This document shows, in pieces, positions 8,762 through 27,143 of a DNA stretch of 64,000 nt. The notes beneath the pieces were generated by a model. The model was not told the DNA's origin. It saw only the letters and a program-made list of their open reading frames with translations, and ran no database searches. The translations under genes and the position numbers were made by a program. The DNA is from Psilocybe cubensis (taxonomy: Eukaryota): the NCBI GenBank assembly GCA_017499595.2, contig CM039009.1:1798001-1862000 (forward strand), given 5' to 3'. The number at the start of each line of letters is the position of its first letter. Position 1 is the stretch's first letter.

Positions 8762-9961
8762 ATGTCTCACTTTTCCTACTTGAATACACTTTACCACTAC
8801 TTTCTGCACTTCAGACATCAATTCCTTGCGTACTCGAATTTGGAAGATGTCGCCAATGCACCGTTGGTAGTCCAGACACGATTTTCAGATTCAGCATGGC
8901 TTAAGCAGGTTATCTTGGTTGGAGAAGTCGCACCCGCTAGATCGGGAACAGCACTCGGAGACATAGGGAATGTAATCCACCTTGCTGCAAGTCATATTAT
9001 TAACTTGCAAATTGCTAAATTGACGTAGTGATTATTTATAGAACGGGACCCAACTCCGTACCGTGCAAGATGGAACATCTGTTCAGATTATTATCTCCCT
9101 TCGCAGGCCGTCCAATAACATTGCAGAAACAAATTTTATATGGGACGCGCAACTTACGCGCTTTCAGAATTTGGAGAATCTGATCAACCGGATATACATA
9201 CCGTTTACGGTAAATGAAGCACTCTCTCTGGACCTGGTTGCGCGGCACAGAGCTAACTTGAACTAGAGATTCGGTGCCTCAAGAATTGTTTCCTTTGTGA
9301 GCAAGGTGGATGAAGAGGATATCGTGAATATCAAATTCGAAAAGTTTAGAGTATGGTATTTTTTCATCTCTCCAAACAATGTACTGTTCACAAGTGAGCC
9401 ATTCCCTTCGTAAGGAAAGGAGAGACGACGATGAAGTCGTTTATTGGCGTGATGTCGGACAGGGTGCGCATTTGAGTGCCTATAACGAACAACTAGGTTA
9501 CCCACACTGACTATTTGGATATTTAGTTCGTAGCGGGGTCGTGTATTCTCACAGAGTTATGGACCACGAGCTATCGCCTTTTTTTGACTTGGAACACGAT
9601 GTTCTTGTTCAACCTGAGGTATATGACGATTTGGGTCATCTCGTCCCGCCGTGGCTTCTTCAAAACGAGTTGCGACCAGGATCAATTGTTATGGTTGAAG
9701 CCGTTTTGATTCCCAGAGACGACTTTAGTTCACCCACGGATGCATCACGGGTGCGTTTGTCATCTTTAAACCTAACATCGTTTAAGAAGGTATCAATACT
9801 GATCCGTTTAGAGCTTCGAAGCTTGGGGTAGACGCGTGCAGGTACTCAGAAGGGGCCAAAGCAAATCTGAGCAAAATATTTTACCAAAAATCTCGAATCA
9901 CTGGCTGATGTCTCCCGGCTCGGGGAGGCCGGCAAAGAGGCATCGGAATGAGTCTGTATGA
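8762..9961 (+). CDS. Uncharacterised multi-exon protein, paralogue of 56649-57902
   Basis: Blocks shared with the distal copy: ILVGEVAPARSGTALGDIG, IWDAQL, VLVQPEVYDDLGHLVPPWLLQNELRPG, FEAWGRRVQVLRRG. Start approximate. Confidence 0.7.
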
Positions 9962-12752
9962 GTTACCATAGCCGTACAACATGATATCGCCTTGCTGTAA
10001 GTAAGGCTCTCCCAGCCCATAATTATGTAAGAATGTTGAACCAAAGTTTGACTGTATTTTTGCAAGGGCATTATTACTAATATCTCATGTGTAATAGCAA
10101 TATTAAGTACCGTATAACGAGGAATTAGTGCCAGCCCCAGCCTCAACGGGATGAAGTTTGGGCTCAATCTAACCCAATGTCAAATAAAGATAGTTAAACT
10201 TGCACTGTACTGATTTATCCTCTAGAAAACCTTCTACTGGTTTTCTCAAAATGGTCTGTTTTATCTCCATATTACATCTACTAGTAGTATATCTACTACA
10301 AATTGAGAAATATACGTGCCCATTCCATCCATTATTGGGTACTGCAATTCGATATCGTGCCCTCATTGACAATCGACAGTGTAGTAGGACAGCAAGGCGC
10401 TTGCCGACGGAGACGGCCACTAGTGAGAAATATATATCGGTATCATGATACTGTTGACGGATTTTCATTACGATATGTATTACACATCAAAATTCATAAG
10501 TATCATGATGATTTCTCGCCTCGGATTATTGTGAATTACTTTGCAAACCGCTAGATCATGAGAATATGAGATATATATTATACATTACTTGCTTTGTAGA
10601 ACAGAGGCCTACGGCTTCTTAACTTCATACACACCGTCCAGGAAGTGACGTGTAATTTACCTTGTTATCTACGTCGATACAGAACTCAGAAGTAAATTAC
10701 CTGTGTAGTAGGAACCACAACTGCAGCCTTCCACAGCATTGTCCAAAAGACAACCTGTTTTACCCATGACGCACACTAAAACATCCAGAATAACCATATA
10801 TCTGGATTGCGGAATCTTCAAGAAACATTGTGCTAAGAAGGTCACCCCGCTGTTTGCCTGACGCCAGCCACGCGGCAGAGTGTGTGTTGTGGTGGGTACG
10901 CACAGCATGACAGGATTGCACGCGGGGCACTGCGTGTTCAGGTGGATTGGGCTTGGGGGTGCCCTGTGGCGTTCGTGGATATGGAAAGCTGGGATGGCAG
11001 GGAAGAGAGCACGACATGCAGCTGAGTGCGTGTCGTGATGAACAGTGGCGGCGGATGGCACAATACGAAGTGCTTTGTGTATTGTTATGGGCGACGGAAG
11101 AAGCAGCGGGGGGAGCAGAGGGTGGACTGAGAGTGGAGGAAACGACACGCGGTCGCGAAGGGGTGGACCGCAATGTGCATGTCATCGTGGGCAGAGAAGA
11201 TGGAAGTGGAGTCGCGGAATGCGTATTGTGGTGGCGGGTGTGTGTGGATACGTTGTGTCGTGTTGTAGCGAGAGGAGCAAGCAACGTGTGTAATGTGAAA
11301 GCGGAGGTGGCGTGGAAGCGCTGCGTGTCACATTGGGGGAGCGGCAGGGACGAGGTGAGTTGCCTGGGAGCGATATGCGGGAGGCGGCGGTGTATAGAGC
11401 ACAAAACCGTGACGCAGTGCCGTGCGTGTTGTGTGAAGCGGAGAGTGTGGCGGGGTTGGGGGGCATGCAGTAAGACGCAGCATGTTGCTGTAGCAGAGAG
11501 TGGAGACATGTGCAGGCGCTCTGTGTCGTTATGGGCAAGGAGTTGAGGAGACGGGGTACAGAACAGAATACACACCGCCGTGCCTATCGCGGTGGGCGGA
11601 GAGGGCATAAGCAGCACAGAAGGATAGGGAACACAATGCGCCCCGAAGTGAGTGTCATGCATGTCGTGGTGGATGGAAAGAGCGGCGGAGTTAGCAGTTA
11701 TCGTTTAAGGAGGGGAATTGGGAGACGAGAGTGATGCTGTGGTCGGTAAATTACAGCGGTGGCAAGGTCGATGTCGACGACGAGGATTTCAAAGACAAGA
11801 CCGATACTAGATTGAAAAATACCATGCCACAATTCCATACCTGTATCAATCGGCGCCTGTCTGCAGAAATGAAGAAGGAACGTGGAATACTTACCACTGG
11901 CAAATTTGGTTCCATGTGAATGACAACATTGAGTGGCCAGCATAAATCAGCGATGATATGGGTGCTATATGCATCATTAATAACAATCATCGATGTACTA
12001 TTGACCATGATAACGGTTAAAACGGTCTCATCATGAAGCTGCCCAGCACTAAGATAGTTCTCGAGCCACGAGTCAAAATTATAGGTCATAAGAGACAATC
12101 AAATGGAAACGAACTGTTGTCTTCGCCACTTCCGTAACCGTGATACGATAGACCGTTGATGGTGTTGTTGGCTTCCTCCCACCGTTTGCCTGGGAAATAC
12201 TAACAAAGGGACAGTTTCAAAAGGGGAAGAGTACCTGATCTGACTTCCGCCAGCGGCCAGTGGTACTTCATTGCTCACCTTTCGACTGTTATTTGGAAAG
12301 CTGAGAATGCGGCGGGGGGCAAAAGGCCACAACGAACAGGAATACTGCTACTCGTTGTCAAATTGAAGGAGTGGTGGTGGGAGATGGGCGTGACAAGCAT
12401 TGACTGCTTGACGTCGTTGAGGGAGCGGCGGGAAGGGACGGGCGACAACGGGTAGAGCCAAATGGCTGCTTGTTGTCTCTATTGTCAGAGAGGGTCGGAG
12501 GCGACGTGAAGACAAACAGGGTGGGTGGTGGCAAGTACGAGACCAGCGGCTTAGATGATGAGACGGTGCTACCTCCATTAAAGGTCACGAGCTCACTCGG
12601 GCAGCGGGAACCGGCCTGGATGCCGGTCCTCAAACGACGAAAAACGCGCGGTATATTTGCGGTATATTGATGAAGAAAAGAAAAGATTAAGTTCTTTCGA
12701 AGAACTCTCTAACATTTTGTTGAAACTAGTATGCTATTAAACCAAAATCTAG

Positions 12753-13207
12753 CTAAGGAAATGAAACTATGATTGTCATAATGTCCCAATCTGTAGTCGC
12801 AGATGGAAGTGCGAGTTCAATCTCTCTCTCGATTTGATGCCTCGCATCTTCTCGCTCCTGGTCACCGAGGATTCTCGAACTCCAACAATGTGCATGGATA
12901 ACCACTCCCTCTAGGTCTGGAAACATGTCTAAATTTAGAAAACTGTCCAAAACTGTCCACGGTCCCAGGTCGGACTGTATGTGTGCCCTGGAAAGATTAA
13001 CTTGGTCCAACTCAATAGTCAGATGCCGTAGATTGTCTGGCCACGCTTCCAAAATCGAGGTTATGTGTGCAATGTAGCGCCCTATCGGTACGGCTCTCGT
13101 GGTTGGATGCATATGGTCTCGATGTCCGTAGTGTAAAGTCAAATCAGTGAGATAAACATGATTTGGAAAGTTAAATGCTAGGCGCGCGGGAAAATGTCGA
13201 TTAAGAT
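12753..13207 (-). CDS. Exon 2 of the F-box/LRR-like gene split by the 12.2 kb insertion
   Basis: Similar to the C-terminal exon of 27144-28502 (LTLHYG, ILEAWPDNLRHLTI, WTVLDSFLNLDMFPDLEGV, IEREIELALP). Acceptor gacctgatAG ends at 13208, phase 1. Confidence 0.8.
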
Positions 13208-13591
13208 CTATCAGGTCAAACACCCTGTTCTTCCTCGGCTGGACGTTTTGTGCCCTCAGCCCCTCTGCGCTGGTCTGATACCTACCCCATGATTTCAAAT
13301 CCTCGCTGCATGGATGCCTGTCATACCATACGAGCGCAATTTGGCACCACTAGGACGAACTTCGGAGTCCAAAAGCGGGCGTGTGGTTTTCGTTGTTGCC
13401 GCAGGGGTTGTCGATCAATATTCGCTCATGAACATCAGACTATCAGCTGTCCATTTGACGTCCAGACTCACAAATAACCTCATCCTCTGGATTCTGCCAT
13501 TCCGATTGTGTCGGTGTCAGCATTCAGTGAAGGAAACCTCATCAGGCCCGTCTTGCTACCAATGCAACCATCCTTCTTTCAACATTACACA

Positions 13592-14180
13592 ACGGGGTAT
13601 CGTGCCCTCCGGGGACTTTTCGACGGGGTATCGTGCCCTTAGGGGACATTTCGACGGGGTATCGTGCCCTCCGGGGACATTTCGACGGGGTATCGTGCCC
13701 TTAGGGGACATCTCGACGGGGTATCGTGCCCTCCGGGGACATTTCGACGGGGTATCGTGCCCTCTGGGGACATTTCGACGGGGTATCGTGCCCTCCGGGG
13801 ACATTTCGACGGGGTATCGTGCCCTTAGGGGACATCTCGACGGGGTATCGTGCCCTCCGGGGACATTTCGACGGGGTATCGTGCCCTCTGGGGACATTTC
13901 GACGGGGTATCGTGCCCTTAGGGGACATTTCGACGGGGTATCGTGCCCTCCGGGGACATTTCGACGGGGTATCGTGCCCTCCGGGGACATTTCGACGGGG
14001 TATCGTGCCCTTAGGGGACTTTTCGACGGGGTATCGTGCCCTTCGGGGACATTTCGACGGGGTATCGTGCCCTTAGGGGACATTTCGACGGGGTATTGTG
14101 CCCTCCGGGGACTTTTCGACGGGGTATCGTGCCCTTAGGGGACATTTCGACGGGGTATCGTGCCCTCCGGGGACTTCACG
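13592..14180. repeat. Tandem array of a 31-bp unit, ~19 copies (CGACGGGGTATCGTGCCCTYMGGGGACATTT), with degenerate copies to ~14290
   Basis: Units start at 13621, 13652 and so on; head-to-tail with no spacers. Confidence 0.97.
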
Positions 14181-14622
14181 ACAGTGTACTGTGCCCGTTA
14201 TCGTGCCCTTTGGGAACATTTGGAAGTGTTCTCATGCCCTCAAAAGACTTGAACGGCGTATTATTGTGCTCTTAGGGAATCTTGGAATGGCTCAGTGTCC
14301 ACAAGATGATTTGGCATTAGTGATTCTCTATGCTACTCTACGCACTCATCGATGCCTACGATGCCCAACTCTTCCACTTTGAGGCTCGCGACTTGCGAGA
14401 GACTGCGGCTGAGACATGTGGTCTCAGTAGACAAGAGCTCTGCTGGGACCTGGTCACGATTCACTAACTGGCTTATGTTAATATCAGTGGCTGTGATAAA
14501 GACCGTTGATCAGATATTAAGGCGGGAGTAAAAATGCTGGCTATCATTTGATATTGTAAGATACATATTCCGTCAGATCCATGTTTATGTTTATGTTTTT
14601 ATAACAGTTAAGTGGCTATGTA

Positions 14623-14997
14623 TTACGTAGACCCAGATCGCCACCCACGCTCAACAAATGCTTCATGCATAAGTTCGTCGACGCGAGCTCCTATTAAATA
14701 AGCATACCACTCCCCCTCTAAACAACTAGTGGTGTGGTCCCGAAGCATACCCTTGAGGTGATGAATTTGCTGGAATTTAGAAGTAATTGGACGGATAATG
14801 ATATCTATCTCCGATCGTATATATTGCTTGAGTTCCTCTGGAATGGGAGGAAGATGGTGATCTCCGACGCAGGACTCCATAAGGCGCGGATAGCGAGGGC
14901 GTGGGGGATTCTGGCTAAAAACGTATAAATTGATATAAGTGACGAAGTTTTTCAGATAGAAATTGACTCACGTTTGATCTCGGAATCGCAACGACAT
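14623..14997 (-). CDS. Small unknown protein A (~100 aa, 2 exons)
   Basis: MSLRFRDQT, GT-AG intron, then QNPPRPRYPRLMESC...LPPIPEELKQYI...GEWYAYLIGARV; paralogous to the adjacent gene. Confidence 0.75.
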
Positions 14998-15210
14998 TAC
15001 ACTTCGTGGTTATCACACAGGACTTTGGAATAAATGACACCCTGAGAAGCGTATAAGGTTGGATAAAGCAGCTGGGGCGAGGCTGAAAAACGCGCGCTTA
15101 TATGCACCAAATGAAACAAGTTTAAGCCGCTATCAATTCAAGGCTCTTCGCAGAAGCACATTCGGTAATACAATACTGCCTTCCTAAAAGCTACACAAGA
15201 CATTAACATT

Positions 15211-15551
15211 CTAGGAATGACTGGCGTGTTCTGCATGTATCTCGGCAAAAATTTGGACTATTCTTGCCGAGACAAAATAACCATACCATTCGCCGGTAGG
15301 CTCGGTAGCCTCCATCAAGTCTAAGACTTCATGAAAAGCTAGCATAGCAAGGTACTTGTCGCCTATTGCTCGTTCAACAATGGTTATGCGATCCTTGATG
15401 AACTGTTTAGTGGCCTCAGGTATGGGTGGCAGATCGGTGCTAAATGCACATGCACGAAGAGATCGAGGGTATCTGTAAGAAAACGTATCAGTCGAGAAAT
15501 AGAAACATGAATAGATCGGTTATACCGAGGAGGATTGGTGGAAGCAGACAT
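15211..15551 (-). CDS. Small unknown protein B (~95 aa, 2 exons); not in the ORF track
   Basis: MSASTNPPR, intron, then YPRSLRACAFSTDLPPIPEATKQFIKDRI...GEWYGYFVSARIVQIF...HS*. Confidence 0.75.
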
Positions 15552-15788
15552 TGTTAAAATTCAAGGGTGAAAATCAGTAACCTATGCTGGGTCGCCTAAA
15601 GTGTCAGAGTAATAATGGGTGATTAATATAGTGTTGCTAGAGGAGACTCACTGTCACGCGCGCCAAAAAGAAAACAAGTAAAATTTAGTGGGAATACCAA
15701 AGTTCTATTTATACACGAACGATGATCCTTATGGCTATATGTGCAGAGCAAGAAACAAAAAGAGCACACGCAGCAATGAATGTCTAAC

Positions 15789-17134
15789 TTAGACAAAGCC
15801 TCGATTATCTACGGCGATTGCCCGAACAGGTCCCCCAAAAGGTTTGGGCGCCCGCGCTTGACTGGTTCGTAGATCAAGCGGGGTGCCTGACGTACATTTG
15901 CCTGATGTGCTCTTCCGCGTCTCTGATTCCTTTTGACGCTCTGTCCCTAAATATGAGTACAATGTGCAGTTCTCAACAGAAACACATACCTTAAGCCATG
16001 GAAAATATATAGGATAAATCCCTAACTCTGCTAACGTCTGATCCGCAGCTACCTCGATCCGGAACAGTAAATAATCCTGGCAATACTGAAAGCATCGATA
16101 GCGTTCCAAGATGGCTGAAGGTGAGATCGGTGGGTTAATAAATTCGCATTCATTAAACAGGCAAAAGATATATAACTTGCCTAATCCGAATCTCTTTTCG
16201 ATTTCTACAGCCTCCTGTACAACTTCATACACTGTCTCGAACGGTGGTGTAGACTGCAGATGATGGTACAAAAGAAATGTGAAGCTCTCGGATTGCTTGC
16301 GCTGACGAAATATTGATGCTGTCATGCTTTTTAAGATCTCTAAATCCGTCTGCGGTACAACGGCCTCAGAAAGTGAGAGGACGCTAACCGAAAAGATTCG
16401 CTGAACAACTGCCATTCGTACAACAGCCATTTCAAGGCTGACATCAGGCAAGCGTGTACTGGCTTGTACCCACAGAAGCTTTGAAATAAAGAGCTCCTTC
16501 ATCCCCAGGAATTGAGCGGGACAATAGTACGCAGCTGTGTTTTCGAAGGGCTGAATGACCTTCTGTAGATACAACCCGGTCATCTCCATCTGTATGTTTT
16601 CTCTGAAATACACATCTTGGTTTCAAAGGAAATGTATAAGAACATTAACAATGCTTACTGTGCGACCTGATACCCATAAAACGCGCGCACTTCTGCTGAT
16701 GTAATTTCACTGGACAAGCGACTTAGTAGAGGCTGGTGGAGTCCAAAAGTCGGTACTAGTAGACGCAAGATATTCTGAATCGAAACGCGAGTGTCCAAGT
16801 TAACCTGCCTGAAATAAGCAGCTGTGTCTAACTCCGCGGGATACTGCTCGGCTATACACAGCCTGTCATGAACCGCATTCTTATATGCAGACCATATCTA
16901 ATAACCGTCAGCAATAAGGAATGGTTCAATAGGACGGACATCACCAATGGTTCCCGTATGGGAAAAAGAACGAAACACCGAGGATTAGAGTCTGTGAGTG
17001 GCTCTAAGCTCCTTAATCTCAAAACCTGTGGTGTCTACATGAACTATAATCGAGAGGCAATCTATGACTAGCATAAATACCTCTGTTTCTGGACCATCGT
17101 CGATTGGTAATAGTGAGCTAAAAACGTTGCCCAT
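15789..17134 (-). CDS. Divergent ribonucleotide reductase small-subunit (R2, ferritin-like) homologue, metal ligands lost; multi-exon
   Basis: Spliced EPLTDSNPRCFVLFPIREPL-IWSAYKNA, AEVRAFYGYQVAQENIQMEM, FTFLLYHHL...VVQEAVEIEKRF and IEVAADQTLAELG are colinear with class Ia R2. 3' end approximate. Confidence 0.8.
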
Positions 17135-17616
17135 ATGGATGCGTTTAATGATATATCGATATGTATAAGCTAAGGAGACGAGATGTGGATAAGTGTGATA
17201 AATGTACTGGGATGCAAAGTTGGCGCTTAAAAACCAATGAAACGCCCTCGTCTAAAACATGACTGTGTTGTCGCTGTCTGAAATGGCTCGCCTTCAGCGT
17301 GTCTTATGCGTACCTTGGAAAGATCTATGCTACTCACTAAGTCTACCTCTTGTATGGCATATGATTATCTGGCCTGACAAACTGATCTACGATTAAATAA
17401 ACCACAAATCAAGTGTTTATTGTGATTTTCTGCGGTCATAGCCAAACAAAACCCCTCCTAGCAAGGAATGTGGTTCCGATCTTATACTGCCAAGCTTGGA
17501 CAGTTCCCAGTCTCATGTCTCTCCGCATATATGAATGTGCGGATATCTCGGAAACACGCGCACTCTCCCCAATTCCTGTCTGCATTGCCATCTTTCCTAT
17601 CTGTCCTCCTTCTACA

Positions 17617-18927
17617 ATGGCTGCGAGAAAGAAACCTATCCCTCCCCCTAAGCCTGTGTCTGCTGAAAAGGGTATGAAATTAAACAGAAATATATCGCCT
17701 ACCTCTAACTTTGCAACTACAGACATGTCCGCCGTGCAGGATGACAGGGAAGGGAAGTTGGATGAAAGCTTGGTCGAGTTCCCGAGTATTGTCGATAATT
17801 CATTTGATCCACCTACGGCCTCATCGAATCATGTCGAAAGCCAGGGTTTGGCAGACGACACCAATACGGAATCCGAAAGTATGCGTCCCGCGCAAAATAA
17901 CTTGTCGAACAAGGCTCCGAAGGCACCAGTTCATGACCGTATGCCATCGCCCCCCCCTTCAAACAACCGCTCTCTTGCAAAGCAGTCGTCCGCCTCTTTT
18001 GTGGCCGCTGGGGGCATGGCTTCTCCCAAGACCACACAGAGAGGCAGACCATCCAAAAAACCTGCAGAACCGACAGCGCACGCAAACTCGTCAAAGCGCG
18101 CTACAAGAGCCAGTATGGCGCTCGACGCAGGTACTGCCAAGGAAGTGTTGGACATTGTGAATACTGTGAAAGTTCTTGATAGTCGTCTCGCTGCCCTGGA
18201 ACAGTCTGAGAGCGACCGATCTGCTGCCCCTCCCCCCCAAGTACCCGTTCCCTCTTCACAACCTCTGTCTTCCGACCCTCTGTTCAAGAGACTGTGTTCA
18301 GCCCATACTGATCTACGAAGCGCTCTACAAAATAACATGGATAACTTCAGGGAGTGGAGAATCACTCACGAAAGCGACTGCGCAGCTTCCAAGGGCGATC
18401 TGGCTGTATTGAAAGGCAGGGTCGCTGCTATTGCTGATGAAGTACATGGATTAAGGGATCGCTTGGATGATGACATACGCACTCCTCACTTCGACGTGTC
18501 TCCCAGCAGCCCCCACACATATCCTCGTATGCAACAAACACATCTTCCGCCCCATTCCCCTCTAGGGAAGCGCCCTTTCAACCAAGACGATGCGGATCCA
18601 ATGGACGTGCAACACATGCCACCACCTACGAGACTGAGAAGATCTGTTCCAGGAGATCTGCTCCCCGAGATATTATTTGGCCCTATTGCACAAGGCGACC
18701 CGATGACAAGAGCCTGTGACGCTATCAAAGATGCTGGTTTGTCGGTTGATGTTGTGGAGGCGGCTGCTCATGCTCGCAGGAAAGGTTTTATCGCCATTCG
18801 ATTTAGAGGGTCGGAACCTGCAAACGCCTTCCTATCCAAAGTCAAGCAGGGCATAGGCAGGTTGCTGGGAACAACGGCATATTGGAGTGAGCCTGTCAAT
18901 ACTCGCACCAATACTCCCTTCAGGTAA
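17617..18927 (+). CDS. ORF1-like protein: disordered N-terminus, coiled coil, C-terminal RRM-like domain
   Basis: Intronless ORF (ATG 17617) with heptad segments (LAVLKGRVAAIADEVHGLRDRL) and EILFGP...KGFIAIRF...ANAFLSKV; lies upstream of the RT ORF on the same strand. Confidence 0.7.
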   Translation: MAARKKPIPPPKPVSAEKGMKLNRNISPTSNFATTDMSAVQDDREGKLDESLVEFPSIVDNSFDPPTASSNHVESQGLADDTNTESESMRPAQNNLSNKAPKAPVHDRMPSPPPSNNRSLAKQSSASFVAAGGMASPKTTQRGRPSKKPAEPTAHANSSKRATRASMALDAGTAKEVLDIVNTVKVLDSRLAALEQSESDRSAAPPPQVPVPSSQPLSSDPLFKRLCSAHTDLRSALQNNMDNFREWRITHESDCAASKGDLAVLKGRVAAIADEVHGLRDRLDDDIRTPHFDVSPSSPHTYPRMQQTHLPPHSPLGKRPFNQDDADPMDVQHMPPPTRLRRSVPGDLLPEILFGPIAQGDPMTRACDAIKDAGLSVDVVEAAAHARRKGFIAIRFRGSEPANAFLSKVKQGIGRLLGTTAYWSEPVNTRTNTPFR

Positions 18928-19561
18928 ATATACCTGATAATGCGCTACTTCTCTTGTGTCTTGAGCACAGTTCTCCATCAACATTGACAATCTGACAGTC
19001 GACGAGGACAAATGGGGGTTGTTATGTTCGTTGTGGACTATGGTTCGTATTACTCTGATTTTCTGACTGATATGTCGACTGGAATATTGGACCTTTATTG
19101 TATTATTATCTTTGTCTCGGACTTTTCTGCATCTCTCCTTTGTGTCTTCCGGACCATTTCGCCTGTGATCTTTATATGGACCCAATAGTGTACTTCAACA
19201 ACCTCGGACACTTATTTGTAGCGTTGATTTCTCTTTCGACCACTGAGCATTTGGACTCAATATTGCCTTATTCCTAATAAAATCAATTAAAACGTGACCT
19301 AGGCCGCTGTTTGGCGAAATAGGTTACTAAATAAAATAGGGGGCAAATATTAATTGCGGCCGTTCACAATGTCTACATCAGATGTATAGACACCTGCATT
19401 TTTCCCCGCTGTAGACCTGTTATCATTGCAAAGGTGCCTCCATTGTAATCGACCTGTCTTATCATACCAATGGACTCTGTAGTTAAAACACAAAGCTTCA
19501 AAAGGGTACAAAACAGTAAGCTTATGCCCTCTTGTTGCGCCAGCTCATACAATCATAAACA

Positions 19562-20260
19562 ATGGACTTCCCTGCACTCGTCTCCAACCCCTCTCCCAAC
19601 AATGCGTCCAGCTCAAATTCTCGTCGTCGGTCTCGTAGGGCCCAATTGATGAGCGAGACGACAACGCCCTCTCTTGAAGAGCTAAACTCTCGCTTTGCGT
19701 CACTTGCCTTCAGCGTCCACAGAATCGAAGACACTTTAAGTCTCTTGTTGGGCAAAACCAATCGACACGTCTATGACATCGTTCACCAACGAGTACTTCG
19801 CGATTATCGAGGTGCTGAAGAATTGGGAACAGCGTTAACAACCATTCCGGAACTCAGGTCGGCCAAAGACGCTCTTGAGGAGAAACTGGATGCAATTGAG
19901 AAAAAGCGGCACCAGGAGTATGCGAATGTAGCCCTAACTCTGGCATGCATATCGGCAAGGTTGGCTGCTATTGAAGAAGGCCCTGCCGACGGAAACAGAC
20001 GAAACCAGGATGCACCGCCTTCTGTCGATGTTATGATGGGACCTTTCTCCAACGAATTCACTCGCAGAGGGACAGAGGACCGTTTGCTGGCGGCCCAAAA
20101 AGTGCTGGAAGGTGATGGAGTCAAGGTTATGGACTTACAAGACCGCCCGGGCTTCCTCCGAGTAACCTTTATGGATGAGGACTCTGCCCATGAATTTGTG
20201 AATAGGGTGGCTCACGACGAAGAACTGAACGTCAGGGGCATCTTTACCATCAAGCCTTGA
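19562..20260 (+). CDS. Second ORF1-like protein: coiled coil + RRM-like domain
   Basis: 232 aa intronless ORF with a coiled coil followed by DVMMGP...PGFLRVTF...AHEFVNRV. Confidence 0.7.
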   Translation: MDFPALVSNPSPNNASSSNSRRRSRRAQLMSETTTPSLEELNSRFASLAFSVHRIEDTLSLLLGKTNRHVYDIVHQRVLRDYRGAEELGTALTTIPELRSAKDALEEKLDAIEKKRHQEYANVALTLACISARLAAIEEGPADGNRRNQDAPPSVDVMMGPFSNEFTRRGTEDRLLAAQKVLEGDGVKVMDLQDRPGFLRVTFMDEDSAHEFVNRVAHDEELNVRGIFTIKP

Positions 20261-20956
20261 ACCCATGTGTGTATGTCCATCCCCACTCTCTAGCTGCCTA
20301 GGTTGACGGAATTTCATTTCATACTATAAAGGATTTTTCTGTGACACAGAAATAGGTACTAACACTTGGAATTGGTGAAATGCGAAATGGACGCTGCTTG
20401 TTATATTAATGTTGTATTTGTATCGTATTCCTACTGGTCTGAAATCATTGTTTGCGCTCATCCTTTGTCCTATGGATTCTCCATTTGAAACTGTTTAGCT
20501 TAAAGTAACATGACGTGAGTATTGAAGCGGGTCTACTACACCCTCATCGAGACGACGGCAGTGATCATATACTGGGAGTGTCTGATTGTCTGCCGCAAGG
20601 TGTACAAAATTGTGTTTTCTTAAAACTTGTCCCCTACCTTGACCGCTGACAGGTATGAAATTGTTTATCAATACCAATGGGCCTCTTGTAACTCGAAGGT
20701 ACTTTTAGTGTTAGCTCCGCCTGCAGCACCAGTCTGGACATTGCCACGGTTGCGTGGATCAAAAGACTGACACAGGTGTGTAACCTGGAAGCTGAGTTGC
20801 GATTACGGGATGACAGATCTGAATTAGAAACTCTTGACGCATACAACTTCTGCCTCTTACATTGACCATTGACAACAAACGCTCAACTTGGTACTCCAAG
20901 CTGACAAGTGGTACCGGTGACTAATAACGTTTCTCTCTCCCAAAACTATCTTTCTA

Positions 20957-23900
20957 ATGCTAAGATTACCAGAAATGCTTGACTCTGAGGGTGCGGTGGC
21001 TGTAATAGTGGGTCCCATTAAAGGAAACGACCCTCAGTGTGATGTCAAATGGATGATGAGGGAAACACTGCTTCCTGAGGACGCCGTGCTGTACGTCTGC
21101 AACGCCAAAAGACAAAACTTCTATATCCTTCACTTTATCACTTCTGAAAGGGCTCATCAATTCATACGAGCGATCCATAACTCTGACAATCCTAAACTGA
21201 GGGCGTGCTCGGCTTACAGGAAAGATGCAAGAGGCATTGACCACTTGCCTACCCACCTTTCCCTAGCCACCTGGAATTGCAATGGTCACCTCGCGGCATG
21301 CATAGGATCTAAAGCCTGGAAGTCACTTATAAAGGCTAATGACATAACCATCTTTCAAGAAACCTTCCTGGGGCCTGACCAACACGAATCGCTAAAACTG
21401 CCTAGAGGCTTCAGAGCTGAAGCGGCTTCAAGACCCTGGTCGCACTCGACAGGTGGCCAACGAGGAGGTGTCGCTGCCATAATCAGAAAAACAGTCAAAT
21501 ACACACGACGAGCAGATCTGTCCTTCCCTGATACCTTGGTTCTCGAGCTTGAAAACTTCGTCATAATTGCTGCATACATTGTCCCTGAAAACAGTTATTG
21601 GGAATCTTGGTCCGAGGTAGATCCTAAGACCCGTGTAGCGGATGCTGCTGCTGTGTGTGCTCTGGAAGGGAAGCCAATAATAGTACTGGGGGATTTAAAT
21701 GCTAGAACAGCATCGCTTCAACAAGATTGCTCCCGTTTGGTCAGATCCTCTCCAGATACAATATGTTCGTCTAGGGGACGTTGGCTTCTTGACGTCTGCG
21801 CCGGCCTGGACTTGCATATCCTCAATGGGACAGATTGCGACATTACCCGCAAACCTTACTGGACGTCATTTCAAAATGCGGGAAATGCGGTTGTGGACTA
21901 TGCAATTATCTCCTCAGACCTACTGCCCTGCCTAGACAAAATGGAGTGTTTCCAGGTAGAAAAGGGAGCCGATCATGCTGCCATTAGAGTGTGCCTCACA
22001 CTCGAAGACTCTAGTTGGTCTCAGGAACCATGGAAAAGTCTCGACCTCTCAAAAGAAGATGTTCTGGATGGCCTCCAGCGAAATGTATACTTAGACGCTT
22101 GTCTCCAACATACCCTTTCATGTGCTATGTCCCCTGAAGATGCGACAAAATACCTATATGGGCCCACATTTTTTAACTCCAACCCAACTCAAGTCTTTAT
22201 GGCGATTGCGGCCTCTAACTCTCGTGACCAATGGAGCGTCGGCTTCAAAACACTAGGAAACCAAAACGTCGTGCTCAGATCCATACACTCTAAGCGTAAC
22301 AACATTTGGGAACTGGCGATAGCAATGTTGCTCCTCGAAAAACCTCCCACGATGCCGCTTATTATCTATGTCTCTTCCCCTGAAGTGGCTAACTTCCTAA
22401 CTACCAAGGCTGGCTCTCTCTTTCTGAATGGTTGGAATGGTCAATTGGACAGCCCGAAAAGGCTGACTTGCACGCTATTGAGAAACCGTCCTGCGTCTAC
22501 CGAAATACGTATCCCCAGGATTTCGAGCCCGGGTGAGCAGTGGGAGCTTAATGTGGTACAATCAACTCTAGTTGGCCTTGAAACCGACGGTGTGGACATA
22601 ACATGGTTGCCTCCAAGGATCGAGGATATCCCCTGCTGGTTCTATCCGCCTGATAAGGATCCGTTGCCGAACGTGGCCTCTAAAGTCTTCATGGGAAAGG
22701 TCACATCAAAACAAATCCCACCCGCACGTAATTCTGAAAATCAAAGAAAGCGTAAAAGGCCGAAAGAGGCTGCGGTGCTTGACATAAAAAGCGAAAAAGC
22801 GGACAGAGAAGTATTGACTCGACATAGAACGCGTGCGAAGATCAGACGAATTTGGGTAGAAAATCTGAACAGGTTTGAAAATATGGCCAGCGACTCCCCT
22901 AAACAATTTTGGAAATTCGTCAAGGAACACACCGAAAAGAGACCTGTGGGGGCAGAAGTTAGTGGGACGGACTTAGTGGACATGACCATCACCAGAATGA
23001 ACCCTCCCTCTTCAATTCCAGATTGCTTTGACTCAACAAAATTCTCTGCAGAAAAAGATGCCTATAACGAGATGCCTATAGCCCTAACAGACAACGCGCC
23101 ACTCCCAAGTTTTACAGACCCTTTCTCATCCGACGAAGTGGATGACGCTAAACAAACGTTGAGAGCTCATTTGTCGGGTGCGAAAGGTATAGACGGCATA
23201 TCTAACGCGGAAATCCTCAGAATCCCTAGCGACAAGTTAGCTGATCTGTTCAACAAGTGCATCCAAACCCTTGATGCGCCGGCCACCTGGCTAACAACAA
23301 TGCTTGTGGGGATTCCTAAAGCCGGAAAATCGCCAAAGAAGGCAGAGAACTACAGAATCATTGCATTGGAATGTTGTCTTCTGAAGATGCTAACCTTGCT
23401 CATTGCAAAACGGTTTAGATCTTGGACTTGCGCCCAAGGTATTTTGCCAGAGTCCCAACATGGATTCCGTCCAACCTTCCGAACAAACAGCTGCGCTTTT
23501 GTCCTAAGAACAACGATCGAAACGTGTTTGGCTAATAATGAAACCCTCGTTGCCGTATTTGTTGACTTGGAGAACGCCTTCCCATCCGTAAACTTGCCCA
23601 CCTTATGGCTTAAACTAGTCAATGCCGGTGCGAATGGACCCATCATGGACTGGATGAGAATGATTTACAGAAGGATGCAATATACTGTGGTACACAACGA
23701 GGGCAACAAGACATTCTCGGCTCTCTTCAGGTCGCTGTGGGGAATACTTGCGGGTGACTCATTCTCTCCAGATCTATTCACATTCTACATTGCAGATTGC
23801 AACCCCCCAGAATCCGACTACGACATTCGATTGGCTGGAAAACTAATAGCTATGCTCCTCCTGGCCGACGACATGATCTTGGTAGAAAAGTTGGGTCCAA

Positions 23901-25165
23901 ATCCAATGCATAGCAAGTTGCAATACCTATCGCAATCCTGGTGCAGGTCCAACTTTATTCGCATAAATGTTGATAAAACAAAAGCAATGCTATGGGGCCC
24001 TATTCCTTCCCTACTCCCTATCCTCTCTCTCCCAAACTCGACAAAGACGATAGAATGGGTGGATTGCTTCGATTACGTGGGTTTAACTTTCCAATCTGGA
24101 TCAAAATTCTTGTTCCAAAAACATGGGATGCGCAAAGCTCTAACAGCATCGCAGTGCACATATATCCTCTTTATGCTGAAATCGGTGATGGGAGATGTAT
24201 TGCCTCGACTGGGAATCCGTTTATACATGGGAAAAGTAGACCCTCACCTCATTCACGGATGCGAGGTAGCAATTGACGTCGACATGAGTACACTTTCACT
24301 TCTACAGAATGCTCAAACAAGAGCTCTCAGAAAAATATTGGGACTTAGTGACCACTCCTTGACGACAGTCCTATTCACAGAGCTTGGTGTTATGCCCATT
24401 CGATACAGGAGACTCCTCATTGCGCTACGCTATTTGAAACACTTAATGGGACTACCGGAAGACAGGCTAGCTAAAGCAGCTCTGGTTCAAAACTGGACCC
24501 TCCTTAATGATGGGAAATCCTGCTGGCTTGGTGATCTAAAATGGGCACTGGCTTCCTTGCCTTGTCCTGTCAAGATCACTCGAGCAAATGTTGCAAATGA
24601 ATCCGCGGTGGACATGCTGGCCGAAAAAGTGAAAGAGTCCTGTGCCTTGTCTCTGTACCGCGAGATCGAAGGCTGTCCAAGGCTCCCTCTCCTTCATAAG
24701 CGTGTTCCCCCCGACAAATCTCACTCTCTCCGTGACGTCGTCAAATTTCGTGCGTACCTACAAATTGTAAGGGTTTCATCACATAGGAAAGCATTGGCGA
24801 GACTTGTGTGTGCGGAACACCCCTTGGCAATAGAAGTATTACGACGTCGAAACGTAAATGGAGTACCCATCCCCAAGGAAAGACGACTATGCCGATTCTG
24901 CAAAACAGATATTGAAGACGAACCTCATGCTTTGATGGAATGTCTAGGATGCCCCCTGCCAATAAAGCTGAGAAGACTGATTCTCTTGAATGAAGCAAAA
25001 GAGGCTTACCCGAGGGAATACTGGGACGTGAAAAAGACTGGTGACAGATATGACCTGCTTCGCCGTTTTCTGGGTCACGACGAGTTGCTTCCAAAGTTTG
25101 CATGCTTTGTGTATCATGTGCTACAGGCCTTTGAAGAGGCCCCCATTTGTATCCCGCAAATTTAA
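20957..25165 (+). CDS. Non-LTR retrotransposon ORF2: RRM-like, AP endonuclease, degenerate RNase H-like, reverse transcriptase, C-terminal Zn finger
   Basis: APE motifs TWNCNG, FQET, GDLNAR, VDYA, DH; RT motifs QHGFRP, FVDLENAFPSV, GDSFSP, LLADD; Zn finger RLCRFC..EDEPHALMEC. 1402 aa with no interruptions. Confidence 0.95.
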   Translation: MLRLPEMLDSEGAVAVIVGPIKGNDPQCDVKWMMRETLLPEDAVLYVCNAKRQNFYILHFITSERAHQFIRAIHNSDNPKLRACSAYRKDARGIDHLPTHLSLATWNCNGHLAACIGSKAWKSLIKANDITIFQETFLGPDQHESLKLPRGFRAEAASRPWSHSTGGQRGGVAAIIRKTVKYTRRADLSFPDTLVLELENFVIIAAYIVPENSYWESWSEVDPKTRVADAAAVCALEGKPIIVLGDLNARTASLQQDCSRLVRSSPDTICSSRGRWLLDVCAGLDLHILNGTDCDITRKPYWTSFQNAGNAVVDYAIISSDLLPCLDKMECFQVEKGADHAAIRVCLTLEDSSWSQEPWKSLDLSKEDVLDGLQRNVYLDACLQHTLSCAMSPEDATKYLYGPTFFNSNPTQVFMAIAASNSRDQWSVGFKTLGNQNVVLRSIHSKRNNIWELAIAMLLLEKPPTMPLIIYVSSPEVANFLTTKAGSLFLNGWNGQLDSPKRLTCTLLRNRPASTEIRIPRISSPGEQWELNVVQSTLVGLETDGVDITWLPPRIEDIPCWFYPPDKDPLPNVASKVFMGKVTSKQIPPARNSENQRKRKRPKEAAVLDIKSEKADREVLTRHRTRAKIRRIWVENLNRFENMASDSPKQFWKFVKEHTEKRPVGAEVSGTDLVDMTITRMNPPSSIPDCFDSTKFSAEKDAYNEMPIALTDNAPLPSFTDPFSSDEVDDAKQTLRAHLSGAKGIDGISNAEILRIPSDKLADLFNKCIQTLDAPATWLTTMLVGIPKAGKSPKKAENYRIIALECCLLKMLTLLIAKRFRSWTCAQGILPESQHGFRPTFRTNSCAFVLRTTIETCLANNETLVAVFVDLENAFPSVNLPTLWLKLVNAGANGPIMDWMRMIYRRMQYTVVHNEGNKTFSALFRSLWGILAGDSFSPDLFTFYIADCNPPESDYDIRLAGKLIAMLLLADDMILVEKLGPNPMHSKLQYLSQSWCRSNFIRINVDKTKAMLWGPIPSLLPILSLPNSTKTIEWVDCFDYVGLTFQSGSKFLFQKHGMRKALTASQCTYILFMLKSVMGDVLPRLGIRLYMGKVDPHLIHGCEVAIDVDMSTLSLLQNAQTRALRKILGLSDHSLTTVLFTELGVMPIRYRRLLIALRYLKHLMGLPEDRLAKAALVQNWTLLNDGKSCWLGDLKWALASLPCPVKITRANVANESAVDMLAEKVKESCALSLYREIEGCPRLPLLHKRVPPDKSHSLRDVVKFRAYLQIVRVSSHRKALARLVCAEHPLAIEVLRRRNVNGVPIPKERRLCRFCKTDIEDEPHALMECLGCPLPIKLRRLILLNEAKEAYPREYWDVKKTGDRYDLLRRFLGHDELLPKFACFVYHVLQAFEEAPICIPQI

Positions 25166-25519
25166 AGTATATTGTAAAAACGTAGGCAGTCAATTGACGA
25201 TTTGTATTCTCCTATATGCACAATGGCTGAAATAGACGACAGCTTTCAATCATGAAAGCAAACCTGCCCGTTAATCTTGGACTCATGGACGCTAACCAGC
25301 GAGCCGGATGCAGGGCAAGGAATGTTCTTGCCCTTGTCGCCCGTGACACAACTGCATGCGCCATGACGTTCTGTGTAGGACAGGGGAGGCATCGGGCCCC
25401 TTCCGCTGCTACGCACCGGGCGGTCCTGTTGAGGGCTGTTTGGTAATCTCGTAAACATAAACATAAACATAAACATTAAGTAAAAAATGAAACAGTCGAG
25501 GTAATGATATGGAACGCAC

Positions 25520-26288
25520 CACATGGATCAAACATGACACATAGGCGCTCAATGCTTGATGAGAAGTGTTCTTCTAAAATATCAAATTCTTCTTTGAGGA
25601 CCTGAGGCCCAGCAGTATCTGTCTGGTCGATACGTAGGCATAAGATCTTCAGAGAAGGTTCTTCACCATCCGTTGAATGGAGGCCGACCGGATATATTGT
25701 CCGAACAACCGATAACTTGTCGGTCTCAATGGTTTCAAGGCTTGGGAGTCGAAGGGCATTGGTATTCGAATATGTCATCGTATTTGATACCTCACAGGCA
25801 ATGAGAGTCAAATCTACAATTGATGTCCCGTCGAGGATGTTCCTTGGGAGGTTTTCTACGTTGTTGAGCTTGAGCGATACCAATTGGTTGGATTTAAGAA
25901 GATTTCCGAAGGATCTTGTGATTCGTTGGTGCATAAACCAGTCAGAATAGAACAGGGGACCAGATAAATAGAGCGTTTCCACCTGCGAACTGGGGTGACA
26001 AAGCATATCAAGAACAATATTGAGGTTTTGGAGAATTTGGATCTTCATAGCGAGAGTCAGAGTATACACGGTGCCGACCTGAGCTTGCACATAGAGGATA
26101 CGAACTCCTGGAAGAATACCAGTATCACGAAATTCCAGCAAACTGCGAAGGAGGAATAGTCTCAAATGGATTTCAAGTGCATTATTCCCCGCCACACATA
26201 TAGTTTCAAAAAGATGGCGGTGTTCGGGCCAAGGAAATGAAGGCGAGGAGACCTCATTTTCGGGTTGCGCAACGAAGGTTAGTGACAT
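25520..26288 (-). CDS. Exon 1 of the F-box/LRR-like gene split by the insertion (F-box N-terminus shortened)
   Basis: Similar to the first exon of 27144-28502 (LVSLKLNNVENLPRNILDGTSIVDLTL, LETIETD, LKILCLRID). Donor GTGCGT at 25519, phase 1. Confidence 0.8.
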
Positions 26289-27143
26289 GGGGGTGTTGAG
26301 ATGAAGGAAATGAGAAAGAATTTGTCGGAATATATTCTATGTGTCCATCAGATGGGTAGAGCAAAATATTAACGCCCTGATTGATATATTGATGCCATGG
26401 CTGATCATATAATTAACGCCCTGACATGAACAATTCTTGGTGTCAACTTGCTGACATGTAGATGTGAAGTGTGCGATTTGGGGAGTAATGAGAACATACA
26501 AGGGCTCCAATGACCTGATCGTGATCGCAAGCTCCGTGCCCTATTGGACTTGGACAACTTAAGGGAAATCTAGTATAAAAAAATCCTGGAATTAATCAAG
26601 CCACAAGTCATTGGCCGGAATAGCTAGTAGGCTTCGGCTCGATTGAGATATTGTTCCTGTATGCCAGGTATTCGGGAGAGCTACGGCATAAATGAAAGTA
26701 GAGTTAAACATTTCGTCCAGTGCCAAACACACAGCTGTATATAAACCCTCCCTTATTGCAACTCAAGTGTACATACCAAGCACATGCAAGTCACATTATG
26801 TGAACTCATGCTAATGGACTCTAGCTATACTCCTGACCATATAAAGACTGCGCTACGAACCATGATGTCCGCGTGGCTTGTCAGAGGCTCCTGGGATCAT
26901 TGTAGGTGAGCGATAATCGAGACATTGAATCCATTTTTGTTCCCCTCTCATTCTCATATAAAAGATGTATCGGGAACATGCTCTATTGGCGATGTACATT
27001 GGTGTCCTTTGCTATCTTTGCGGTCGGTCATCAAATAACCTTTTCGACATTTCGACAATGGATACATATAAATTATTACGTGATGATATGCCATCGACAC
27101 AGCGCGTGGATAACTAAGTGATCATGACCACCTTGGTAGCCAG

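Follow-up and report, generated by a model that had tools for sequence, protein, structure and literature searches.

A LINE-ended block of composite make-up between two exons of a Psilocybe cubensis gene

The split host gene and the inserted block

On the minus strand of the window, the 64-kb stretch of Psilocybe cubensis DNA that was analysed as a whole, two orphan exons flank a block of 12,254 bp, and an intact paralogue of the split gene lies nearby. The features at this locus are as follows.

25520-26288, minus strand: 5' exon of the host gene (34% identity to paralogue residues 43-280, E = 1e-34)
12753-13207, minus strand: 3' exon of the host gene, stop codon included (35% identity to paralogue residues 324-450, E = 1e-18)
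27144-28502, minus strand: intact neighbouring paralogue, with a 57-nt GT-AG phase-1 intron at 27655-27599
25477-25519, minus strand: donor-side remnant of the host intron, from the intron reconstruction
13208-13222, minus strand: remnant of the host intron on its acceptor side, ending on the plus strand in the 5-nt AAACA (13218-13222), a putative target-site duplication
13223-25476, plus strand: the whole inserted block, between the two intron remnants

The two orphan exons are halves of one gene, collinear with the neighbouring paralogue, as a sequence-only reading of this DNA had proposed. The spans aligned to the paralogue were 25521-26288 (minus) for the 5' exon and 12756-13205 (minus) for the 3' exon, and with 25520-26288 spliced to 12753-13207 the frame runs uninterrupted for 407 codons to its stop. 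The splice sites are both phase 1, as claimed; they fall within an Asp codon, at the position of the paralogue's 57-nt intron. Excision of the block in silico leaves an intron of 58-59 nt (the T at 25476 is ambiguous), compared with the 59 nt given previously and 57 nt in the paralogue.

Inserted DNA makes up the sequence between the orphan exons (13223-25476), with a LINE at its right end; the junctions, the tail, and the APE and RT domains described below bear out the proposed insertion into a host intron with a non-LTR element as its 3' end. AAACA is found at both block ends, abutting the left edge at 13218-13222 and within the (TAAACA)n tail, so that one short duplication encloses the LINE together with the extra 5' sequence. 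This duplication is weak evidence, because it is 5 nt long and identical to the tail unit; we put the likelihood of its arising there by chance at a few per cent. A terminal-repeat comparison found no LTRs or terminal inverted repeats for the block, and no second copy of it lies within the 64-kb window.

A contig from run X5, which comes from another study, bridges the left junction (12200-13254) with 0 differences; the right junction was masked as repeat in the read comparison, and independent bridging applies to the left junction. We considered that a DNA-level event (recombination or segmental duplication) or a mis-assembly might have put the block between the exons. The host region is missing from run X11 at 80% likeness, and X11-X13, which carry the same species label, contain 0.02-0.03 of the words of 9000-18999, compared with 0.97-0.98 in all five block-carrying runs; the neighbourhood is therefore structurally polymorphic, as such an event or artefact might leave it. 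Against this, the left junction is bridged independently, the block finishes on the right precisely with a LINE tail, the intron as reconstructed equals that of the paralogue in position, phase, and length, and terminal inverted repeats are absent. A DNA-level or artefactual origin is thus extremely unlikely.

The LINE at the 3' end of the block

The 3' ~8 kb of the block (about 17.4-25.5 kb) is a real LINE consisting of ORF1a, ORF1b, and ORF2, with its own 5' end probably at about 17.2-17.5 kb.

17515-18927, plus strand: ORF1a, 470 aa, disordered and coiled-coil-like, with a predicted C-terminal RRM fold (C terminus against the ORF1 of related locus L004, E = 5e-5)
19562-20260, plus strand: ORF1b, 232 aa, with a C-terminal RRM-like module (against the C terminus of L004 ORF1, E = 4e-4)
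20957-25165, plus strand: ORF2, 1402 aa, with an N-terminal RRM-like module, APE, RT, and CCHC
21266-21985, plus strand: APE of ORF2 (Pfam)
23333-24091, plus strand: RT of ORF2 (Pfam)
24890-24943, plus strand: CCHC motif of ORF2
25166-25451, plus strand: 3' UTR, its last ~120 nt highly repeated
25452-25476, plus strand: (TAAACA)4.2 tail

Pfam identified the APE (PF03372, E = 3.3e-13, residues 104-322) and the RT (PF00078, E = 4.5e-17, residues 793-1045) in ORF2, and C1312, H1324, and C1329 of the CCHC motif are invariant across aligned relatives. With APE and RT in ORF2, a simple-repeat tail, and neither LTRs nor terminal inverted repeats, the element has the make-up of an APE-type non-LTR retrotransposon. 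The tail, previously placed ~290 bp past the RT stop, begins 286 nt past the ORF2 stop. Read depth over the 3' UTR is high, at 128 in 25160-25639 for run X9 and 610 for an X11 contig piece covering 25328-25444.

The same RRM-fold module is common to the C termini of ORF1a and ORF1b, the N terminus of ORF2, and the end of L004 ORF1; ORF1b also aligns to the ORF2 N terminus (E = 6e-4). AF2 predicted a beta-alpha-beta-beta-alpha-beta fold for the ORF1a module (pLDDT 76.7), and the top Foldseek matches of this model were almost all RRM domains (best E = 1.5e-3); Pfam gave no hit for the ORF1 proteins. On this model, the ORF1 proteins would be of the RRM type known for LINEs, with a predicted RRM fold and genes on the same strand as, and upstream of, ORF2. 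The RRM-ending ORF1 of L004 is directly upstream of L004 ORF2. Because the module is shared, and because neither the spacers nor the 5' part of the block yielded LINE coding remnants, ORF1a, ORF1b, and ORF2 are best read as one unit and not as stacked truncated LINEs. The earlier view that the two ORF1-like genes and ORF2 belong together gains support from the homology to L004 ORF1 and from the shared module.

Relatives comprised proteins P0001 (Psilocybe cyanescens), P0002, P0004, and P0003 (Tricholomella constricta) and metagenome loci L001-L005; among 11 related loci, only L004 has more than 2 kb upstream of ORF2. ORF2 is 44% identical to P0001. Like this LINE, its Agaricales relatives have a full-length collinear ORF2 with APE, RT, and a C-terminal CCHC; L004 likewise has an RRM-ending ORF1, and L001 a microsatellite tail, (TATC)8, ~310 nt past the ORF end. 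Unlike this element, with its two ORF1s and an RRM on ORF2, the relatives have a single ORF1 or an ORF1-ORF2 fusion (P0003), and they carry a recognisable RNase H between APE and RT, whereas Pfam found no RNase H here. The 4.2-kb 5' extension also sets this element apart from these relatives. In L004, 9.6 kb of upstream sequence holds ORF1 and then, further upstream, the host FKS1 gene; neither an array nor any similarity to the cargo was found at this one comparable locus.

The composite 5' part and its antisense genes

The 5' 4.2 kb of the block is a composite of a repeat-module mosaic, a 31-bp array, an inverted tail, and three minus-strand ORFs with introns. The mosaic and the inverted tail were absent from the sequence-only reading.

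13225-13397, unstranded: repeat module M, 173 nt, multi-copy elsewhere in different context
13423-13607, unstranded: second repeat module, present elsewhere in other contexts
13592-14277, plus strand: 31-bp tandem array, about 19-22 units, degenerate at its right end
14581-14599, minus strand: inverted (TAAACA)3 tail, 18 nt, 100% complementary to the LINE tail
14626-14997, minus strand: small paralogue 1 (public model P0019, exons 14997-14971, 14913-14749, and 14688-14626)
15214-15560, minus strand: small paralogue 2, its upstream exon and 53-nt GT-AG intron placed by eye
15789-17133, minus strand: degenerate ribonucleotide-reductase-R2-like gene with introns (PF00268; start codon placed by eye)

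The claimed tandem array and pair of small paralogues were both recovered: the array core is 31 bp x 18.8 at 13592-14174, with degenerate units reaching 14277, and the paralogues share 32% identity (E = 5e-19). Small paralogue 1 is spliced in its public gene models, and the R2-like gene has a canonical 56-nt intron (16658-16603, GTAAGC..TTTCAG); these agree with the earlier observation that the intron-bearing genes are antisense and the sense ORFs continuous. The claim of an RNR-like gene stands in part. PF00268 matched two collinear exons on either side of the intron (E = 7.4e-4, profile positions 143-237, and E = 2e-3, positions 12-91), and because the matches are collinear, homology to PF00268 is likely on sequence grounds. 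The scores of 19.4 and 18.0 bits lie below the curated 33.6-bit cut-off, however, and the protein is degenerate. Aligned to yeast RNR2 (E = 0.019), RDEGLH corresponds to RQRKQS, with E and H replaced, and the R2 motif ENIHSE reads ENIQME (by eye), so that the di-iron ligands of the E..H motifs are not retained. No relatives of the ORF were found among 1.84 billion representatives.

Repeats at the left edge also occur outside the block. Module M has loose ends at 13225 (36 reads in X9, and two contigs in X11, sharing a single consensus upstream) and at 13397 (33 X9 reads), and its word depth in X5 is 46-110, compared with 24 in the flank. Its other copies share upstream sequence, while their downstream sequence differs from the block. 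Since this 173-nt start of the block lies inside another repeat elsewhere, CCCTGTTCTTCC, put forward previously as the shared 5' end of the copies, is not a family terminus. The second module has a loose end at 13607 (53 reads in X9), and an X11 piece matching 13423-13572 lies within a 1242-nt contig otherwise unlike the block. Array depth is high in X11, and array contigs are present in X6 too.

Such edges raise a further possibility, a multi-partite chimera, in which the RT jumped serially from LINE RNA to other RNAs, so that every 5' module represents the 5' part of a separate transcript. Known template-jump chimeras have short parts, of about 1 kb at most, and the idea is hard to reconcile with an inverted tail and 2.8 kb of intron-bearing genes in antisense. 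The modules at 13225-13397 and 13423-13607 do start and stop abruptly relative to other genomic copies, and those copies share conserved sequence upstream of the start, as for a transcription start. A fungal precedent with flanking direct repeats comes from Magnaporthe, whose WEIRD/Mg-SINE/MGL chimeras arose in this way (PMC2104539). We regard serial jumping as very unlikely for the block.

Within the 64 kb, such sites number just two, the inverted (TAAACA)3 and the LINE tail; 0.48 tail-motif matches would be expected, and none of 100 shuffles reached five. Position 14581 is a loose end in X9 (74 reads, flank agreement 0.52), that is, a multi-flank boundary, and 14581-14599 is likely the 3' end of an older minus-strand retro-insert. 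If it carries intron-bearing genes that are sense-oriented with respect to that tail, the insert is no processed retrocopy; either unspliced RNA was its source, or the tail-like repeat is just part of a 3' UTR. The segment holding the small paralogues (14618-15768) has a ~83% identical copy in X5 and in X11. Among the differences from the window, C>T and G>A changes are abundant, making up 84 of the 153 places listed for X5 and 83 of the 153 for X11. X11 has this segment, though it has no reads at least 80% alike over 16040-24199.

The inverted tail bears directly on sequential nesting in place, in which a LINE of ~8-9.5 kb arrived first and a minus-strand retro-insert (14581 to ~17.4 kb), and perhaps others, later. 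The multi-flank boundary at 14581 is in its favour, as is a fall in X9 depth from 48.6 (14600-15079) to 26 (17000-17479), which a 5'-truncating minus-strand family would produce; the AAACA duplication would still pair both block ends. Under nesting, 13223-14580 would possibly be the array-bearing 5' UTR of the first LINE. Several observations oppose it: the LINE is very young (~9 of 3105 positions differ between copies, see below) and the host exons are intact, leaving little time for extra insertions; the intermediate form was unseen in the five block-carrying runs; no target-site duplication of at least 7 nt was found around the inverted insert; and module M is multi-copy in X5, whereas the LINE body is not. 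We consider nesting unlikely.

Copy number and origin of the block

In X5, a contig covering 14145-20684 has a depth of 23.5, compared with 24.1-25.6 in the flanks, and is single-copy. Contigs covering 20655-21151, 21145-24249, and 24240-25357 have depths of 45, 40.4, and 40. Depth changes at the contig overlap:

20655-20684, plus strand: start of a second, near-identical LINE copy, from contig depths

This copy, from ~20655 to the 3' end, is the sole extra LINE copy in X5. Among the pieces listed for that run, no second cover at least 80% alike was seen for 15768-20655, nor was a master locus, which weighs against the origin favoured below. Between the doubled contig 21145-24249 and the window, 9 of 3105 positions differ; given this and the still open host exons, the insertion is young. 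Depth in X9 steps up towards the LINE 3' end (27.8, 62, and 128), and X11 has LINE pieces only from 24902 to 25444. Together with the second copy in X5, these are 5'-truncated family members sharing the 3' end.

These data weigh on the proposal of a LINE lineage of unusual size whose six ORFs include three passengers, that is, a transposition-competent element of ~12 kb with the array, small paralogues, and R2-like gene as standard antisense passengers. One duplication pair encloses the whole block, the antisense genes keep their introns while the sense ORFs are continuous, all cargo ORFs are open, and the small-paralogue segment has older decayed copies, like a transposable-element component. 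In X9 raw reads, moreover, the block centre (about 14.3-20.4 kb) has a depth of 27.8, compared with 14.0 in the flanks (summed). This 2.0x depth could reflect a master copy or equally a second, near-identical transposed copy with other flanks, which would favour a lineage. The proposal nevertheless fares poorly. The extra X5 copy begins inside the LINE, the left edge is no shared terminus, L004 lacks the cargo, the small-paralogue segment occurs independently, the inverted tail marks part of the cargo as a separate, older insertion, and the R2-like ORF has neither relatives nor the metal-ligand residues of the yeast alignment. No two copies at different sites were seen to share the 5' end and cargo order, and the cargo was not conserved at the one locus of one with more than 2 kb upstream. 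Most of what had been set out beforehand as counting against a gene-carrying lineage was observed. A true cargo-carrying lineage is unproven and, in our judgement, quite unlikely, with the X9 depth keeping it in consideration. That the 12.25-kb composite is itself transposition-competent, copying three antisense intron-containing genes around the Psilocybe genome with the X9 copy as daughter or master, we hold to be improbable.

The explanation we favour, with a probability that we judge evenly balanced, is that a composite or read-through master RNA was integrated in a single target-primed event. Once the LINE endonuclease had nicked the host intron at ...AAACA/TTAAG, a long plus-strand RNA would anneal there by its (TAAACA)n tail, and copying would run to position 13223, leaving the AAACA duplication. 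The 3' ~8 kb of this RNA would be the LINE, with its three ORFs, 286-nt 3' UTR, and tail. The 5' ~4.2 kb would be sequence in or upstream of the master's 5' region, co-transcribed by 5' transduction or read-through, and not cargo that evolved with the LINE. Within it, 13223-14580 would be a mosaic of unrelated repeat modules plus the 31-bp array, and 14581 rightwards an older minus-strand retro-insert with the inverted (TAAACA)3, the two small paralogous ORFs, and perhaps the R2-like gene; template jumps may have occurred at the extreme 5' end of the copied RNA. The introns of the cargo genes would have survived RNA passage because the genes are antisense to the transcript. We infer that the block arrived as one unit, as first suggested: the AAACA pair favours a single integration event for both ends, although the 5' part is composite.

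Human L1 and SVA can take 5' flanking DNA along by 5' transduction, in transcripts that start upstream or read through, as in SVA-MAST2. The block resembles these cases in having one duplication pair around a retroelement plus 5' non-element sequence and in antisense features that stay unspliced. It differs in the extra part, which is ~4.2 kb (7.4 kb from the second copy's start), much longer than usual, and contains three ORFs and an older inverted retro-insert; a 5' transduction of 4-7 kb is far longer than typical L1 cases. Mouse L1 has tandem-monomer 5' UTRs, and the array here is likewise a short-unit, sense-oriented repeat near the 5' end of a LINE-containing unit. Unlike those monomers, it lies 3.2 kb from ORF1a with antisense genes between, and the same array occurs without the LINE body in X11. 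Among fungi, the Magnaporthe chimeric LINE retro-elements (WEIRD/Mg-SINE/MGL; MINE) have foreign sequence fused 5' of a LINE copy by fungal LINE machinery, in several parts and flanked by short direct repeats, as here; their parts are short sense copies of abundant RNAs, whereas the block has kilobases of antisense intron-containing genes and an inverted tail (PMC2104539). MarorLINE-6 (Inkcap) and MarorLINE-7 (Tad1) of Marasmius oreades are described as active and low-copy, with a single master giving rise to new 5'-variable insertions; the portion of that report available describes no cargo or composite 5' region (PMC9674265). By copy pattern, the family here, with one full-length and one shorter copy, fits that description.

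If one-step arrival is true, the block is among the longest 5' extensions carried by a LINE and a natural analogue of the antisense-intron retrotransposition reporter, in which genes cross an RNA stage keeping introns and promoters; this would be a route to duplicating intact genes, which ordinary retrocopies lack. Were the composite transposition-competent, LINEs would be natural vehicles for duplicating unspliced, promoter-bearing genes in fungi; a mere nest would be an ordinary block. The LINE itself is young and apparently intact, with three RRM modules, and its copy number varies among strains of this mushroom, which recommends it as a tractable marker of ongoing transposition.

The split host gene and the edges of the inserted block

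The features discussed here are as follows.
12753-13207 (-), orphan host exon
13223-25476, inserted block
13592-14277, 31-bp tandem array
14626-14997 (-), small paralogue 1
15214-15560 (-), small paralogue 2
15789-17133 (-), R2-like gene
17515-18927 (+), ORF1a
19562-20260 (+), ORF1b
20957-25165 (+), ORF2
25520-26288 (-), orphan host exon
27144-28502, neighboring paralogue of the split host gene

The two orphan exons that flank the block are collinear with the neighboring gene: 25521-26288 (-) matches its residues 43 to 280 with 34% identity (E = 1e-34), and 12756-13205 (-) matches residues 324 to 450 with 35% identity (E = 1e-18). The intron of this paralogue (27655-27599, GT-AG) lies in phase 1 within an Asp codon; the orphan exon boundaries share this phase and fall at the homologous Asp, and fusion of the exons gives 407 codons and a stop, which upholds the sequence-only reading that they are halves of one gene. 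The block opens with CCCTGTTC... at 13223 and closes with a (TAAACA)4.2 tail at 25452-25476, and AAACA is found at 13218-13222, immediately 5' of it. Excision of the block and one AAACA leaves an intron of 58 to 59 nt, compared with 57 nt in the paralogue, much as had been reconstructed.

We consider it very improbable that the arrangement is a DNA-level event or an artefact; the left junction is bridged with 0 differences by a contig (12200-13254) from X5, a sequencing run from a study separate from the possible source runs. The right junction is repeat-masked in the read comparison, and none of the 5 joints listed across four runs is the empty-site joint (13222 to 25477), the tail region being masked. 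Just 0.02 to 0.03 of the words of 9000-18999 are present in X11, X12, and X13, runs with the same species label, and the host region (9000-13222 and 25477-26599) may show presence/absence polymorphism among strains. One 500-bp bin in it, 11000-11499, has a GC content of 0.588 and a GC skew of +0.476, far above neighboring bins, and overlaps long ORFs of both strands, 10760-11662 (-) and 10947-11546 (+).

The LINE in the 3' 8 kb

The 3' 8 kb of the block are a genuine, young LINE, a new member of an Agaricales LINE lineage. ORF2 (1,402 aa) has APE and RT domains by Pfam and a conserved C-terminal CCHC motif, and aligns over its full length with proteins from Agaricales, with 44% identity to one from Psilocybe cyanescens and 33% and 29% to two others. 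For both ORF1a and ORF1b, databases list an identical protein from Psilocybe cubensis. Metagenome contigs yielded 11 related loci; one of these, L004, carries a 435-aa ORF1 (8267-9574) immediately 5' of ORF2, and the C-termini of ORF1a (E = 5e-5) and ORF1b (E = 4e-4) both match its C-terminus. The N-terminal 100 residues of ORF2 in turn match the ORF1b C-terminus (E = 6e-4). An AlphaFold model from a four-sequence alignment has the RRM order beta-alpha-beta-beta-alpha-beta (pLDDT 76.7), and the top Foldseek matches were nearly all RRM domains, none better than an E value of 1e-3. On these alignments and the predicted fold, one RRM module is present three times in the LINE, and both ORF1a and ORF1b are the ORF1-type genes they had been taken for. 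Their link to LINE ORF1 comes from the L004 alignments and not from database proteins P0001 to P0007, to which BLASTP gave no significant match (E ≥ 0.77); an atlas search with ORF1a gave weak leads only (feature scores ≤ 0.83, TM < 0.5).

The tail begins 286 nt after the ORF2 stop, in line with the earlier estimate of about 290 bp, and the related locus L001 has the same layout, terminating in (TATC)8 about 310 nt 3' of its ORF. BLASTX against LINE proteins (E < 0.1) found no ORF1 or ORF2 remnants in the spacers or the 5' part of the block, which speaks against a stack of truncated LINEs; such a stack was ruled out also because truncation spares 3' and not 5' ends.

In P0002, a database protein among the closest relatives of ORF2, an RNase H domain (324-458) lies between the endonuclease (APE, 9-250) and the RT (686-933), and likewise in P0004; its usual position is after the RT. 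The spacer is present in the window ORF2 (22100-22650 by alignment), gives no Pfam RNase H match, and by eye has apparently lost the first-strand catalytic Asp.

Composition of the 5' 4.2 kb

The 5' 4.2 kb of the block are a composite. In the 64-kb window (TAAACA)n occurs at two sites only, the LINE tail and a perfect, inverted 18-nt copy at 14581-14599; tail-type matches numbered 5, a count reached in 0 of 100 shuffles, against 0.48 expected by chance. In X9, a set of raw reads with the same species label, a read boundary falls exactly at 14581 (74 reads, mixed flanks, agreement 0.52), and depth to its right drops from 48.6 to 26 across 3 kb. This pattern marks the likely 3' end of a minus-strand retro-family whose copies are truncated at the 5' end. 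Around the inverted insert, the search for a target-site duplication gave at most one non-adjacent 7-mer. Twin priming was ruled out, because segments made in that way have no tail and because 1.36 kb separate the inverted tail from the left junction.

Elsewhere, the block's initial 173 nt (13225-13397) follow one common upstream sequence (36 X9 reads and both X11 contigs) and precede another common downstream sequence (33 reads), and the module at 13423-13607 behaves in the same way. The 5' end of the block therefore lies within another repeat, and the idea of a shared family terminus at 13223 has to be given up. A search for small-RNA identity of these modules over 12000-26500 gave 0 Rfam matches (E ≤ 1) and 0 genes in a tRNA scan. 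The 31-bp array belongs to an independent, dispersed family of minisatellites. It is found elsewhere at far higher depth (X9, X11, and X6; up to 345 in X11), and some units there are broken by a 14-nt insert; the window array is free of it. Upstream of the L004 ORF1 lies a host FKS1 glucan-synthase gene, and the locus has neither a tandem array nor sequence similar to the 5' part of the block.

The R2-like gene gave PF00268 matches on two collinear exons, both sub-threshold, separated by a canonical 56-nt intron, and alignment with the yeast protein shows that the RDEGLH motif has lost its E and H. No relatives of the R2-like exon were found by word search, by atlas, or by exhaustive phmmer of 1.84 billion representatives. 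Given this intron and the intron-bearing models of the small paralogues, the contrast drawn earlier between antisense genes with introns and continuous sense ORFs is correct; public model P0021 gives ORF1a an in-frame intron of 51 nt, across which the reading frame stays open.

The small paralogues share 32% identity (E = 5e-19), and database searches found no relatives of them beyond P0019 and P0023, gene models of the same locus; the match of small paralogue 1 was accordingly rejected as an independent homologue. Its exons are modeled, with introns, at 14997-14971, 14913-14749, and 14688-14626 (or 14491-14336). P0019 ends at 14626; P0023 (115 aa) is spliced from 14752 to the exon at 14491-14336, spanning the inverted (TAAACA)3. 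Copies of the small-paralogue segment at about 83% identity are present in X5 and X11, and the differences in X11 are exactly those in X5. Loose-end sequences just outside are by eye still window-like, so the paralogous region probably extends farther. Over 14618-15768 the window copy is less mutated than this other locus. C>T or G>A changes make up 84 of 153 listed differences between repeat copies in X5, 83 of 153 in X11, and 447 of 843 in X9, an excess that suggests deamination-type decay of methylated repeats.

When the 11 related loci were searched by tblastn, residues 61 to 108 of small paralogue 1 gave weak matches beside the LINEs in L001 (2860-3030, -; E = 1e-3 to 2e-4) and in L005 (603-677, +; E = 3e-3 to 5e-3). 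These were judged unreliable as homologues, being short, of differing orientation, and in one case overlapping the frame of another ORF; they are probably due to chance, with a possible hint that the ORF family travels with these LINEs.

Copy number and origin of the block

Copy number was assessed in one read comparison of four runs. In X5, whose contigs are near-identical to the window, word depth is 24.1 and 25.6 in the flanks, 23.5 in the contig 14145-20684, and 40 to 45 in the contigs covering 20655-25357, the longest piece of which differs from the window at 9 of 3,105 positions. The X5 genome therefore has one extra, near-identical LINE copy that starts near 20655, about 300 nt 5' of the ORF2 start. 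In X9, with both strand columns summed, depth is 14.0 in four flank bins, 27.8 in 17000-20359, and 62 in 20840-25159, so the block center stands at twice flank depth; this could be due to a second copy, either master or daughter, or to hemizygosity of the flank in a dikaryon. In X11, both host flanks and 16040-24199 lack depth, coverage gaps that are no proof of absence; the run contains 13225-13397 (two contigs), 13423-13572, the array, the 83% copies (14618-14844 and 15297-15550), and LINE 3' pieces (24902-25198 and 25288-25444).

The doubled X9 depth is the main result sustaining the sequence-only proposal of a cargo-bearing LINE lineage, which we now regard as unlikely; against it, the pieces listed for X5 include no second ORF1a or ORF1b and no further copy of the 5' genes and array. 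The accompanying claim that the block arrived as one unit survives in part. A single recent event for the whole block is favored by the duplicated AAACA, by the clean reconstruction of the intron, by host exons that are intact, and by the near-identity of the two LINE copies, and later nesting in place is improbable; the composite anatomy of unrelated repeats points to earlier construction of the 5' part at a master locus. We give about half our credence to a single recent target-primed event with a pre-assembled, co-transcribed 5' part. At the master locus, repeats of unrelated kinds would first have joined an older retro-insert in inverted orientation; a transcript that read through or began upstream would then have carried them together with a full-length LINE, and the whole would have integrated in one step.

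The block resembles L1/SVA 5' transduction and fungal LINE chimeras but differs from both in its size, its antisense intron-containing ORFs, and its inverted tail; a literature search on P. cubensis LINEs and 5' transduction found nothing specific. Template jumping is reported for Magnaporthe LINE chimeras in PMC2104539, and similar jumps may have contributed at the extreme 5' end; a pure template-jump chimera is a distinctly poor candidate for this composite block.

The last ~120 nt of the 3' UTR (25328-25444) are far more common than the rest of the element, with a word depth of 610 in X11 and, in X9, 128 for the bin at the 3' end. Either copies truncated to a very short length share this 3' end, or a non-autonomous partner does.
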